Source: Escherichia coli
GTDB lineage: Bacteria; Pseudomonadota; Gammaproteobacteria; Enterobacterales; Enterobacteriaceae
Strand: one strand, 5' to 3'
Assembly: GCF_041248615.1 (NCBI RefSeq)
Contig: NZ_CP158426.1
DNA: 64,000 bases
Positions within the stretch are counted from its first letter, which is position 1. Every line of letters starts with the position of its first letter. A program made the translations under genes and the position numbers. The notes under the pieces were generated by a model. That model was not told the origin of the DNA and made no database searches. It saw only the letters and a program-made list of their open reading frames with translations. Positions 37,107 through 58,957 of this stretch are shown here, piece after piece.

Positions 37107-37210
37107 GGTGCGGACACTGCCAGTCTGACCTGTTAAAGGCTGCAGGGCTGGCCAGAAGCACGCTGTACTACCAGCTGTCACTGCAGAAGGCTAAGGACAA
37201 GTATGCTGAT

Positions 37211-37965
<755 letters not shown>

Positions 37966-40851: not shown

Positions 40852-42763
<1,912 letters not shown>

Positions 42764-43912: not shown

Positions 43913-45052
43913 ATGGTTTTGCAATCCACGCGCTGGTTGGCGCTCGGCTATTTCACATACTTTTTTAGTTACGGCATTTTTCTACCTTTCTGGAGCGTTT
44001 GGCTTAAGGGGATTGGCTTAACGCCAGAAACCATCGGCCTGTTATTGGGGGCAGGTCTGGTTGCCCGTTTTCTCGGGAGTTTGCTCATCGCGCCCCGCGT
44101 CAGCGATCCTTCTCGCCTGATTTCCGCCTTGCGCGTGCTGGCACTGCTGACACTTCTCTTTGCAGTCGCCTTCTGGGCGGGGGCGCACGTAGCGTGGCTG
44201 ATGCTGGTGATGATTGGCTTTAACCTCTTTTTCTCACCGCTGGTACCGTTGACCGATGCACTGGCGAATACGTGGCAAAAGCAGTTCCCGCTTGATTACG
44301 GCAAAGTGCGATTGTGGGGCTCGGTGGCGTTTGTCATTGGCTCGGCGCTGACGGGTAAACTGGTCACTATGTTTGATTATCGGGTGATCCTCGCGCTGTT
44401 GACGTTGGGCGTGGCATCCATGCTGCTCGGCTTTCTCATCCGTCCGACGATTCAGCCACAAGGGGCAAGCCGCCAGCAGGAGAGCACCGGTTGGTCTGCG
44501 TGGTTGGCGCTGGTTCGCCAGAACTGGCGCTTTCTGGCCTGCGTTTGTTTATTGCAGGGGGCGCATGCGGCCTATTACGGTTTTAGCGCCATTTACTGGC
44601 AGGCTGCTGGCTACTCGGCCTCGGCGGTGGGCTATTTGTGGTCGCTGGGCGTGGTGGCGGAAGTCATTATCTTTGCGCTGAGTAATAAACTTTTCCGCCG
44701 TTGTAGTGCACGCGATATGCTGTTGATCTCGGCGATTTGCGGCGTAGTGCGCTGGGGCATTATGGGAGCAACTACGGCGTTGCCGTGGTTGATAGTGGTG
44801 CAAATTCTGCATTGTGGCACCTTCACGGTCTGCCACCTGGCCGCCATGCGCTATATTGCCGCTCGCCAGGGTAGCGAAGTCATCCGTTTACAGGCGGTTT
44901 ACTCTGCCGTCGCGATGGGCGGCAGTATCGCGATCATGACCGTTTTCGCCGGTTTCCTGTATCAATATCTGGGGCACGGCGTGTTCTGGGTGATGGCGCT
45001 GGTGGCGCTTCCGGCAATGTTTTTGCGCCCGAAAGTTGTTCCCTCATGCTGA
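43913..45052 (+). CDS. hcaT: MFS transporter (putative 3-phenylpropionate transporter)
   Basis: 379 aa, 12 predicted TM segments. Confidence 0.9.
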   Translation: MVLQSTRWLALGYFTYFFSYGIFLPFWSVWLKGIGLTPETIGLLLGAGLVARFLGSLLIAPRVSDPSRLISALRVLALLTLLFAVAFWAGAHVAWLMLVMIGFNLFFSPLVPLTDALANTWQKQFPLDYGKVRLWGSVAFVIGSALTGKLVTMFDYRVILALLTLGVASMLLGFLIRPTIQPQGASRQQESTGWSAWLALVRQNWRFLACVCLLQGAHAAYYGFSAIYWQAAGYSASAVGYLWSLGVVAEVIIFALSNKLFRRCSARDMLLISAICGVVRWGIMGATTALPWLIVVQILHCGTFTVCHLAAMRYIAARQGSEVIRLQAVYSAVAMGGSIAIMTVFAGFLYQYLGHGVFWVMALVALPAMFLRPKVVPSC

Positions 45053-46324
45053 TTCGAGCATTTTGCGGATTTGCTCCTGTTGATGTGTTGTCAGCGTCAG
45101 GTCCGTATAGATCAGCGGTGGTGAAAAGAGCGGTAACGGCATGGTATAAGGAGCAATAATCAGTGCCGCGCCGCGCGGAGCGCCTGTCTGCAAAAATACC
45201 TTTACCGACATATGTTTAATGTTGAGCGGCAGTAACGTTAGTTCGCGTAGCTGCTGCTCAATCTGCGCTTCTCGCTCGCTATCATTCCCGGTCAGTAGAA
45301 TAATCTGTTTCTCATGCAGGTCGTTTTCCTGCATTAGCCAGGCACCGAAAATCACCGCGACCAGACCGCTTTCCTCATCAGAAAGATGGACGCCGTATTC
45401 ACTTTCAAATCCGGCCAGCGCCGCGCGGGTGGTGCGCACCAGGCGTGGATACAGGCGGGCGAACTCTTCCGGCAGGGTGTTATCAATACCGATGGCAAAC
45501 AAGCTGCGATTTAACGCCTGGGCGAGGTGGGTATAAAGCTGATCGCACAACCCCTGTTCATCATAAAAACGAACATTTCCCAGCTCACGAAAATGGTTTA
45601 CCAGACGTTTGATAGACTGACGCAGTTGTCTGTCCCGCTGATGCGCATCCCGCAGTGGATCGGGAACCCGCAACATGGAAAAAAGTAATGCCATGAACAG
45701 TGGCTCATCAGGCGGTACAGGCTGGAGTGCCCGACGCTGCCAGTGGCGTCCAATTTCCTGCGCTACCTGAAATTCAAGGCAGGATTCCGCCCAGCGACGT
45801 TGGAGCGGATTAAACTGAGGCGTAATTCCAGCGTGGTGTTGCAGCAAACAATATTGCAGATACAGACACAGGAAATGAATATCGCGCGTTTCAAAGCGTT
45901 TTTGCAGCCGTCGGGAGCAGAGATTCACTAACGCTTGTAGATTGGTATCGTCGTAAAAGTTACGCGCAATTCCGCGCCGCTTCAGTTCACTCTTCAGGGC
46001 GGGGGTGAAATGGCTGGTAATAAATGACGGACAGAGACGGAAACCACGTCGTAGCCAGTGAAATAAACACAAACGTTGGTTAAGCACTGTACCTTCAACC
46101 CGGTAGCTACCGTCATAACCAGTAGTCAGTGTGAGTTGATGATAGCGCAGGATCTCCCGTCCTGTTTCGCTGATATCAAGACTGGCAATATCATCATCCA
46201 CACCATTAAGCTCGCTGAAAGTTGCCGTGGTGGCGGTCAACCCCGGCTGAAAGAGTGTCAGCAAGATCTGGCAGCGGCGCTGGGGAGCCGAAAGGACAGA
46301 TGGTGGAGCAAGCGTAGGCATCAT
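45044..46324 (-). CDS. csiE: stationary-phase-inducible protein CsiE (PRD-domain protein)
   Basis: 426 aa from MMPTLAPPSVLSAPQRR...; 3' end overlaps the 3' end of hcaT by 9 bp (convergent). Confidence 0.88.
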   Translation of the reverse strand: MMPTLAPPSVLSAPQRRCQILLTLFQPGLTATTATFSELNGVDDDIASLDISETGREILRYHQLTLTTGYDGSYRVEGTVLNQRLCLFHWLRRGFRLCPSFITSHFTPALKSELKRRGIARNFYDDTNLQALVNLCSRRLQKRFETRDIHFLCLYLQYCLLQHHAGITPQFNPLQRRWAESCLEFQVAQEIGRHWQRRALQPVPPDEPLFMALLFSMLRVPDPLRDAHQRDRQLRQSIKRLVNHFRELGNVRFYDEQGLCDQLYTHLAQALNRSLFAIGIDNTLPEEFARLYPRLVRTTRAALAGFESEYGVHLSDEESGLVAVIFGAWLMQENDLHEKQIILLTGNDSEREAQIEQQLRELTLLPLNIKHMSVKVFLQTGAPRGAALIIAPYTMPLPLFSPPLIYTDLTLTTHQQEQIRKMLESA

Positions 46325-46514
46325 CTGTAGATCTCCCATAAGCATAATTGATAAGAATAGCTAAAGTTTGCTCAGGGAAATGGCGAAGGGAATGCTAATG
46401 ATCAGAAATGTTGGCAAGCGTCACAGAATTTTTCTCATCTTAAACTGTTCTGACCAGTGGATTAGCATGTCTTAAGGTGGTTTTGTGAATGATTATCGTG
46501 CTAGCGATCATGGG

Positions 46515-47368
46515 TTAGTTCTGCGGATTCAACGCGCTAAGGATAAAATCCACCATCTGTTCGCGATAAACATCGCCGTGACGATCGGAAAAAGCATCAA
46601 TGTGTTCGCCATCCGGGATTAGGATCAACCGTTTTGGCTCTTTTGCCAGGCTATACAACTTTTCGCTGTGCTGCCATGGGATAACGTGATCAGCTTTACC
46701 GTGAATGAGTAAAAGCGGGATCGGGCTGACGCTGGCGATGTAATTTTCGCCGCTGTAACTCTCATCAAGTAAGTAGCCACTGCCGGGGATCATCTGGTTG
46801 GCGATGGTCGCATAAGAGGCAAATGTGGAGTCGAGGATCACCGCACGTATGCCTTCACGATCACCCTGACCAATAACATCCAGAATATTCGCCCCGCCAA
46901 TACTCTGCCCGAACAGCACCAGCCGTTGTGGGTTTACATCACTGCGATGGCGCACCACATTGATGGCACTTTGCGTATCGTCCAGCAATCCGGCCTGGGA
47001 CGGCGTGCCTTTTGATTTACCAAACCCGCGATAATCAAACATAAAAACGTTGAAATTACGCTCGGGTAACCAACTGACCAGCGGCCAGTGGGCGGACATA
47101 TTTCCGGCATTGCCGTGAGCATGAATAATGGTGGCAATGGCATTTTCAGCGGGGCCAGTTGCAGAAGGGATAAACCAACCATGTAGGCGAGTGCCATCTT
47201 TAGCGGTGAATTCTACTGATTCGGCTGACCAGGGATCGGGGCCGTAGATTTTGTCGTCAGGGTAATAGAAAAATTGATGGCGATGCGCGGTATTAAATAA
47301 ATGCAGAAGGCAACAACAAAGAGAATAAACAGAATTTTGAGAACGCGTTTGTTCACTGGCAGCGCCAT
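46515..47368 (-). pseudogene. yfhR: alpha/beta-hydrolase (S9-peptidase-like) gene with a -1 frameshift in a homopolymer
   Basis: N-terminal signal-anchor ORF (MALPVNKRVLKILFILFVVAFCIYLIP..., part of track ORF 47213..47395) and the hydrolase body (...FYYPDDKIYGPDPW..., GQSIGG) are in different frames. Adding one A to the A5 run at 47269-47273 joins them into a single 284-aa ORF. Confidence 0.6.
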
Positions 47369-47512
47369 AACCTTTCCTTGCGACTTCTTTATCATCCATT
47401 AATCGGGGAAAGATGGTGGGAGAGTGGCGAAAGAAAGTAAAGCGGTGAGGAAGTATTTCGGAATAGCGCCTGAAAGGCGAGGGCGGGTGAGTGACATCAC
47501 CCGCCAGAGTCA

Positions 47513-48316
47513 TTAACGCTTCAGGGCGTCGCTTAACTCGTCACGCATGTTCGCCAGCATGGCTTTAACAACGCGCGGGTTACCAGCAACGATGTTACCG
47601 GTCAGCATGTAGTTATGACCACCGGTGAAGTCGCTGACGATGCCGCCCGCTTCACGAACCAGCAGCTCGCCTGCCGCGAAATCCCACGGACGCAGACCGA
47701 TTTCAAAGAAACCGTCAACGCGACCCGCAGCAACGTAAGCCAGATCCAGCGCCGCAGAACCGGTACGACGGAAGTCTGCACATTCGTTGAACAGTTTGCC
47801 GACGATGTTGATGTAGGTGGTGGCGTACTGTTTTGCTTTGAACGGGAAGCCGGTCGCCAGAATAGTACCGTCGAGATCGCGAGCGGTGCTGCCGCGCAGA
47901 CGGTAGCCGTTCAGCTGTGCGCCCTGACCGCGAGTGGCGGTGAACAGTTCGTTACGCATAGGATCGTAAACCACAGCAACTTCAGTGCGGCCTTTGATAC
48001 GAACGGCGATAGATACCGCGAAGTGCGGCAGACGTTTGATAAAGTTGGTAGTGCCATCCAGTGGATCGATAACCCATTGAACATCCTGATCAGTACCTTC
48101 AAGTTCACCGCTTTCTTCGGTGATGATGGTGTGCTGTGGGTAAGATTTACGAATCGTGTCGATAATCACCGCTTCGGCAGCTTTATCTACGTTGGTCACG
48201 AAGTCGTTACTGCCTTTCTGGCTCGCTTCTACAGCGTCCGGGGTTTCATAGTTTTTGGCAATTAAATTACCCGCCTTGCGCGCTGCGCGCACGGCGATGT
48301 TCAGCATCGGATGCAT
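47513..48316 (-). CDS. suhB: inositol monophosphatase
   Basis: 267 aa, MHPMLNIAVRAARKAGNLI...; IMPase motifs DPLDGT and WDFAAG. Confidence 0.96.
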   Translation of the reverse strand: MHPMLNIAVRAARKAGNLIAKNYETPDAVEASQKGSNDFVTNVDKAAEAVIIDTIRKSYPQHTIITEESGELEGTDQDVQWVIDPLDGTTNFIKRLPHFAVSIAVRIKGRTEVAVVYDPMRNELFTATRGQGAQLNGYRLRGSTARDLDGTILATGFPFKAKQYATTYINIVGKLFNECADFRRTGSAALDLAYVAAGRVDGFFEIGLRPWDFAAGELLVREAGGIVSDFTGGHNYMLTGNIVAGNPRVVKAMLANMRDELSDALKR

Positions 48317-57808: not shown

Positions 57809-58957
57809 TGTGTAAGTTCACAGAGATATTGCAATTACCTCCGGATAAGTAAGGGGAGATTGCACTATGCAAATGCAGCATCTGATGGTTGGCTATCCTA
57901 AGTACTACCAAACGGCCGATTATGCGTTGAGGCTTTCAGTGATGGCTGATACAGCAACAATGAGAATGAAGGCTCTGCACTTCTGGGATAAACACGGTAT
58001 TTCTGCAGCTTCTGAAGCCTTTGGCGTGTCCTGCCGCACGCTTTACTGGTGGCGTCAGTTACTGAACAAGGGAGGACCTGAGGGGCTAATCCCGCACAGT
58101 AAGGCACCTCTGGTGCGACGAAAAAAGCACTGGCATCCCGATGTGCTGAAAGAGATTCGACGGCTGCGGACAGAGCTGCCGAACCTCGGTAAAGAGCAGA
58201 TTTTTGTTCGCCTGAAGCCCTGGTGCGAACAGCGCTATCTGGCCTGTCCAAGTGTTTCCACCATCGGCAGAATGATCGCTGCCGCACACGATAAAATGCG
58301 AATGATACCTGTGCGTCTGGGCTCGCGGGGGAAGGCACTGCTTGTCAAAAAGCGGTCTGCCAAACCCCGCAGACCAAAGCACTACCGCCCGGTAAAGACA
58401 GGTGAGCTCATTGGGATGGACGCCATTGAGCTCAGAATGGGCGAACTGCGTCGCTATGTCATCACCATGATCGACGAATGCAGCAATTACGCGCTGGCGC
58501 TGGCTGTACCGTCGCTCAACAGTGATATCGTCAATCACTTCTTCAGCCGTGCAGCCCGGCTGTTCCCGGTCGGTATCAGTCAGATAATCACAGATAACGG
58601 AAAAGAGTTCCTGGGAAACTTCAACAAAACGCTGCAGGAAGCCGCTATCAAACACCTCTGGACCTATCCCTACACGCCAAAAATGAACGCTATCTGTGAA
58701 CGTTTTAACCGGACGTTAAGAGAGCAGTTTATTGAATTTAATGAGATTTTACTCTTTGAAGATCTGGCGCTATTTAATCAGAAGCTGGGGGAATATCTGG
58801 TACTGTATAACAGCAAAAGGCCCCATAAGGCGCTCGCACTAATGACGCCCGTGGAATATATTTTAAGAGAGAACAAAAATTGCAATATGTGGTGGACCCA
58901 TACATTCGCTTGACAAAAAGAGAGTTACTGGCGAGTATTGCTTTGCTGTGAAGCACC
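57809..58957 (+). mobile_element. IS481-family insertion sequence (boundaries approximate)
   Basis: Single DDE-transposase ORF flanked by gapped imperfect inverted repeats sharing TTCACAG and GCAAT blocks (left about 57811-57842, right about 58929-58955); outer ends and target duplication are not resolved. Confidence 0.45.
57867..58913 (+). CDS. IS481-family DDE transposase (HTH plus integrase-core/rve domain)
   Basis: 348-aa ORF; N-terminal HTH (FGVSCRTLYWWRQ); catalytic residues in GMDAIEL, ITDNGKEF and ICERFNRTL; C-terminal YNSKRPHKAL motif typical of IS481/IS3 rve domains. True start may be an internal Met. Confidence 0.8.
   Translation: MQMQHLMVGYPKYYQTADYALRLSVMADTATMRMKALHFWDKHGISAASEAFGVSCRTLYWWRQLLNKGGPEGLIPHSKAPLVRRKKHWHPDVLKEIRRLRTELPNLGKEQIFVRLKPWCEQRYLACPSVSTIGRMIAAAHDKMRMIPVRLGSRGKALLVKKRSAKPRRPKHYRPVKTGELIGMDAIELRMGELRRYVITMIDECSNYALALAVPSLNSDIVNHFFSRAARLFPVGISQIITDNGKEFLGNFNKTLQEAAIKHLWTYPYTPKMNAICERFNRTLREQFIEFNEILLFEDLALFNQKLGEYLVLYNSKRPHKALALMTPVEYILRENKNCNMWWTHTFA

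Follow-up and report, generated by a model that had tools for sequence, protein, structure and literature searches.

A 1-bp deletion in a short T-run probably makes yfhR a pseudogene in the Escherichia coli NRZ14408 clone

Introduction

Among described systems, the locus examined here resembles the homopolymer contingency loci of Neisseria, Haemophilus and Campylobacter in that the frameshift of yfhR in Escherichia coli NRZ14408 falls in a homopolymer close to the 5' end of the gene and the encoded protein is envelope-associated. Set against those loci, however, the yfhR tract is too short, is not conserved across the species and shows no length polymorphism in accurate assemblies. The other natural reference is K-12 YfhR (b2534, NP_417029.4, 'putative peptidase', 284 aa), which is encoded at the same suhB-csiE locus and possesses the same MALPVNKRV... 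anchor and the same Pfam domains. A literature search returned no functional study of yfhR, the gene appearing only in a Keio strain listing and in one transcriptome table entry; the corresponding Keio deletion strain, delta-yfhR JW2518, is in use (PMC6351232).

Here we analyse yfhR within a 64-kb stretch of E. coli DNA (hereafter the window), which corresponds to positions 1344001-1408000 on the + strand of NZ_LT599825.1, the record of E. coli NRZ14408. The yfhR frameshift is already known, as the PGAP/RefSeq flag 'frameshifted' is carried by NZ_LT599825.1 itself, and it is nothing new in kind. Our analysis concerns its origin and consequence, and we consider it highly probable that a genuine 1-bp deletion has abolished yfhR function in the NRZ14408 clone, leaving a pseudogene.

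Results

Organization of the yfhR locus

In a megablast comparison of window positions 46400-47600 with 5,426 complete E. coli genomes, NZ_LT599825.1 was the single full-span match at 100% identity, over all 1,201 bases, and in the next-best matches listed the query aligns to a stretch of the record that is one base longer. RefSeq places the yfhR pseudogene at 46515..47368 on the minus strand (854 nt; R2K29_RS06685, 'alpha/beta hydrolase, frameshifted'), with suhB (47513..48316) and csiE (45044..46324) as its annotated neighbours, and annotation comparison reveals that the suhB-yfhR-csiE order is common to NRZ14408, isolate 362, C4 and K-12. An intact yfhR allele measures 855 nt, that is, 284 codons and a stop. 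The assignment of the gene to yfhR, proposed in an earlier note made from the DNA letters, is borne out by the RefSeq annotation, by the suhB-csiE synteny and by the repaired open reading frame, which is identical to K-12 YfhR at 276 of 284 residues (97%, with eight differences); conserved position and full-length identity together place the locus among the YfhR orthologues (b2534).

The native ATG (47368-47366, minus strand) opens the sequence MALPVNKRVLKILFILFVVAFCIYLIPRIAINF, which is followed by SITLTTKSTAPIPGQPNQ and then by a TAG stop at 47215-47213, so that the frame from the native start covers 47213..47368 on the minus strand and 51 codons. Of the 51 residues encoded, 33 are native and correspond to a short cytoplasmic tail with the transmembrane anchor, and the remaining 18 are out of frame. 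The alpha/beta-hydrolase body, FYYPDDKIYGPDPW...NPQN, occupies 46518..47268 on the minus strand (residues 34-284 of the intact protein, GQSIG included) and ends at a stop at 46515-46517, in a frame different from that of the native start. Anchor and body thus lie in separate frames, as had been proposed, and the switch between them falls at 47269..47273, in a homopolymer that reads T5 on the minus strand and A5 on the + strand and that appears as a single gap when the minus-strand gene is aligned to its intact relatives.

Just 5' of the native ATG at 47368 we find a Shine-Dalgarno-like element, AAGGAAAGG (47371..47379, minus strand), which may function as such. The interval 47213-47395 as a whole forms a 60-aa open reading frame from an upstream ATG (MIKKSQGKV-MALPV...); both RefSeq and K-12 place the start at 47368. 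Directly 3' of the suhB stop, RNA folding predicts a GC-rich hairpin with a 9-bp stem and a 6-nt loop (47482..47505, minus strand), the surrounding 66-nt stretch at the suhB-yfhR junction reaching -23.9 kcal/mol (z = -2.84), and CCUCGCCUUUC follows directly after it. This hairpin is possibly a weak intrinsic suhB terminator or an attenuator between suhB and yfhR, with a weak U-tract. The consensus scan of 46300-47700 called neither promoters nor terminators, the hairpin at 47482-47505 included.

A single missing T separates the window copy from intact alleles

We compared the window with its closest complete relative, isolate 362 (NZ_OW967178.1), and with C4 (NZ_CP010121.1), and over the 276 aligned columns the sole difference is a single gap, where the window has T5 and both relatives have T6. 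In the intact relatives the six T residues form part of AAT TTT TTC, coding for N-F-F. The intact protein of isolate 362, C4 and many other E. coli is WP_001445864.1, and this allele has the same DNA around the site as the window and differs from it in carrying T6 rather than T5. Adding one T to the window copy restores 855 nt and a 284-aa product identical to WP_001445864.1, in agreement with the proposal that one extra base would give a continuous open reading frame of the K-12 length; the coordinates and sequences given in the earlier note proved correct as well. Since the repaired frame is identical to WP_001445864.1 and close to K-12 YfhR, the locus reads as a known gene with one indel and not as a chance pattern of open reading frames.

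Compared with K-12 yfhR, the copy in the window is one T short, and its product stops at 51 residues. At the corresponding site K-12 reads AAC TTC TTC, without a homopolymer, in contrast to the AAT TTT T(T)C of the window allele. The earlier note had made its interpretation depend on the reference protein having the MALPVNKRV N-terminus and a length of 284 aa; K-12 YfhR has both, and the longer open reading frame at 46515..47513 is therefore not the native gene. As expected of a frameshift pseudogene, the window copy carries one indel when compared with intact orthologues and has a premature stop in its native frame.

The change from T6 to T5 at codons 32-34 thus moves translation into another frame once residue 33 has been read. 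The native start now yields the membrane anchor with 18 out-of-frame residues, a 51-residue peptide in all, and the entire hydrolase domain, with its GQSIG nucleophile elbow, is left out of frame. The deletion itself may have arisen by replication slippage in a short homopolymer that, owing to the synonymous codons AAT TTT TTC, exists in this allele family only, and it would postdate the split from isolate 362 and have been inherited within a small clone. As a Keio deletion mutant exists and the gene is hence dispensable, the loss of yfhR was probably neutral or nearly so.

The encoded protein is a predicted membrane-anchored serine hydrolase

In profile searches, intact YfhR matches the Pfam families Hydrolase_4 (69.9 bits, cut-off 27), Abhydrolase_1 (62.3 bits, cut-off 25.8), Abhydrolase_6 and Peptidase_S9 (32.6 bits, cut-off 22.6) within residues 77-281, and every one of these hydrolase matches maps downstream of the frameshift; the 51-aa frameshifted peptide gave no Pfam match. 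The same type of search found no specific NCBIfam equivalog for YfhR at or above the cut-off. The G-x-S-x-G nucleophile elbow is GQSIG at residues 154-158, with Ser156 encoded by AGT at 46902-46904, and it aligns with GISLGG of PDB 7qjm. Candidate regions for the catalytic aspartate and histidine are HGKADHVIP and PDGEHID, which in the alignment pair with ADQLVP and MSHFN of the same structure.

At the N-terminus, residues 9-27, VLKILFILFVVAFCIYLIP, reach a mean Kyte-Doolittle hydropathy of 2.72 over 19 residues and are preceded by lysine and arginine residues. By the positive-inside rule, this arrangement suggests an N-in signal anchor that would place the catalytic domain in the periplasm.

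A chimeric reading frame created by the deletion

The deletion also generates a 332-aa open reading frame at 46515..47513 on the minus strand, whose ATG (47513-47511) overlaps the suhB stop codon in the sequence TAATG. From there the frame passes through the intergenic hairpin and the 5' region of yfhR in the wrong frame and joins the hydrolase frame via the deletion; its first 100 residues contain no hydrophobic anchor, the maximum 19-residue Kyte-Doolittle mean being 0.71. Automatic gene calls in public collections nonetheless list the 332-aa protein. This open reading frame is an artefact of gene callers and not a native gene, as it exists only because the hydrolase frame happens to contain no stop codon on its way up to the ATG in TAATG. 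Callers based on open reading frames consequently mask the pseudogene, placing an 'intact' 332-aa hydrolase with a spurious N-terminus in public protein collections.

We further considered internal re-initiation. The first in-frame methionine past the premature stop is residue 91, which lies beyond the HAHGNAG motif and lacks a Shine-Dalgarno sequence, and re-initiation there, which for these reasons could not give an active enzyme, was rejected.

Genuine deletion or alternative explanations

The earlier note had named two readings of the frameshift, a genuine pseudogene, possibly phase-variable, and a homopolymer sequencing error. In the latter case, the missing T would be a consensus error of a long-read assembly, and the strain would truly carry T6 and an intact yfhR. 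Single-base homopolymer deletions are a typical residual error of long-read consensus sequences, and the co-authorship of its genome paper suggests that NRZ14408 may have been sequenced on the PacBio platform. Furthermore, among the approximately 700 complete genomes with this allele T5 occurs only in the NRZ14408 record, and the same call turns up for other strains in sequences that are plainly full of errors (GCA_025847655.1, short Logan contigs). The site is indeed prone to homopolymer miscalls on noisy long-read platforms, since T5 also appears there as an error, and in a collection of 5.8 billion proteins the inspected matches to the 51-aa peptide, other than the exact peptide, lie on short or noisy contigs with further frameshifts. 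The quality of the NRZ14408 assembly nevertheless argues against an error: nine SNPs and a single indel, the yfhR T5, distinguish it from isolate 362 over the 64-kb window; over 138 kb of alignment to the same genome we count 26 SNPs and two indels (yfhR and a 2-bp difference in an rRNA-operon spacer) and no other homopolymer indel; and yfhR bears the sole 'frameshifted' flag in 164 kb of annotation. T5 also recurs in clean contigs of two other sequencing runs and in a second NCBI assembly. The exact 332-aa fused open reading frame, which requires T5 on this allele, is present on 14 public contigs, three of which we detail here: a 5,345,375-bp contig of GCA_014863425.1 with T5 and no difference from the window over 21 kb; an 11,274-bp Logan contig of SRR11318805 with T5, no indel and a private SNP at window position 41572, ending at the IS1397 boundary; and an 8,651-bp Logan contig of ERR2935576 with T5 and no indel, its one mismatch lying at the contig end. 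The cleanness of the two Logan contigs over 8-11 kb makes raw long reads an unlikely source, and it is solely from this cleanness that we infer short reads. Some of ERR2935576, SRR11318805 and GCA_014863425.1 may be the same strain re-sequenced, yet the private SNP in one T5 contig indicates a different isolate. NRZ14408 is a member of a clone that has been sampled several times, since three drafts from other projects (GCA_020005525.1, GCA_025155495.1 and GCA_029445575.1) share its alleles at the four SNPs that set it apart from isolate 362 over the 14.6 kb covered and each carries a private SNP; the fetched contigs of these drafts end at IS1397, short of yfhR. Clean T5 contigs under other accessions and a low indel density in the assembly therefore favour a genuine pseudogene, and of the two readings originally put forward the sequencing error is the one we judge unlikely.

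If the deletion is genuine, the T-run could still be a phase-variable contingency switch that turns YfhR on and off within populations by frequent expansion and contraction, as the earlier note had suggested, and the yfhR frameshift, in a 5'-proximal homopolymer, does lie where such switches are usually found. Known slippage switches, however, use longer runs than five or six bases, and the yfhR tract, at six or five bases, falls short of a homopolymer of about eight or more. Its length is also nearly invariant: with a 41-nt query, exact T5 occurs in one of 701 matching complete genomes, the rest being consistent with T6, and with a 91-nt query in one of 692, so that accurate data contain no length polymorphism among close relatives. 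All clean contigs from members of the clone have T5, without mixed lengths, and the intact relatives have T6. Products of a T7 allele (MALPV...INFFLLP, 37 aa) were confined to contigs with every neighbouring gene in fragments, and as candidate signs of tract instability they were set aside as errors on that account. Moreover, the tract is not conserved in the species. About 700 of the 5,426 complete genomes, a minority, match the T-run allele, and the other 4,731 belong to the K-12 allele family, with AAC TTC TTC in K-12 itself and 1,314 genomes identical to K-12 over the 91-mer. The T-run is therefore an incidental result of the synonymous codons used by a minority allele, and we give phase variation next to no credence. 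A last alternative would have expression rescued in spite of the deletion, either by -1 slippage on A-AUU-UUU-C or through a soluble cytoplasmic 332-aa hydrolase coupled to suhB by the TAATG overlap. As read from the sequence, tRNA-Phe slipping by -1 on U5 would bring back N-F-F-Y-Y exactly as in the wild type, and the ATG at 47513-47511 that overlaps the suhB stop does open an uninterrupted frame of 332 codons. Against such rescue, intact orthologues consist of one continuous 284-codon open reading frame and need no frameshift, so there would be no selection for a recoding signal, and the need for a frameshift is not conserved among orthologues as it would be in programmed frameshifting; a stimulatory element is not evident, and nothing suggests an efficient -1 slip. 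The 332-aa frame, for its part, crosses a stable hairpin, has no Shine-Dalgarno sequence and puts a non-hydrophobic peptide in place of the membrane anchor, and the first in-frame methionine downstream, residue 91, comes after the HG oxyanion motif. We regard rescue of expression as scarcely credible, and under a genuine loss-of-function deletion any full-length YfhR still made would depend on tRNA-Phe undergoing a rare -1 slip on U5.

Discussion

A genuine loss of yfhR matters little in itself, as it would mean that one multidrug-resistant clone, NRZ14408 and its close relatives, has lost a dispensable and poorly characterised membrane-anchored serine hydrolase. The T5 allele could nevertheless serve as a marker of the NRZ14408 clone, and the locus illustrates how a homopolymer frameshift in a long-read genome can be checked against independent public sequencing runs. 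A more consequential outcome, which we hold to be very unlikely, is that the deletion relocates the enzyme in a suhB-coupled, soluble 332-codon form, or that a -1 slip on the U5 run keeps a trickle of wild-type YfhR; if true, either would mean that a pan-resistant clinical clone carries an allele that is regulated or neofunctionalised.

Other features in and around the window

Four assemblies, GCA_025847655.1, GCA_019431095.1, GCA_019431125.1 and GCA_014857685.1, consist of megabase-scale contigs in which most genes of the region are split into two to five pieces. The one of the four that was aligned, GCA_025847655.1, has 49 gap openings over 19 kb, most of them indels in homopolymers. These four assemblies feed spurious frameshifted peptides into protein collections, T5 and T7 variants of yfhR included.

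The nine SNPs between NRZ14408 and isolate 362 lie at window positions 2828, 8818, 11194, 18958, 31262, 31983, 36219, 36332 and 63573. Several of them alter proteins, the accessions of RseC, YfhH, YphF, YphE and YfhM differing between the two genomes.

The yphB gene (aldose 1-epimerase; 35635-36507, + strand) is interrupted by a TAG at codon 87 and carries the pseudogene annotation 'internal stop'; since isolate 362 carries the same flag, its loss is older, at the level of the lineage and not specific to NRZ14408. Between yphB and yphA lies IS1397, an IS3-family element (36585-37933, + strand) that is also found in isolate 362 and in many genomes at about 98.7% identity, and it is precisely here that the short-read contigs of clone members end. 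Between timP and sseA, at 57867-58913 (+ strand), a gene for an 'integrase core domain-containing protein', likewise present in isolate 362, is likely a mobile-element remnant. Outside the window, NRZ14408 carries a prophage after guaA that isolate 362 lacks, and its sinH gene, encoding an intimin-like autotransporter, is split by the IS21-family element ISEc12 (NZ_LT599825.1, 1421004-1425769), in contrast to the intact copy of isolate 362.
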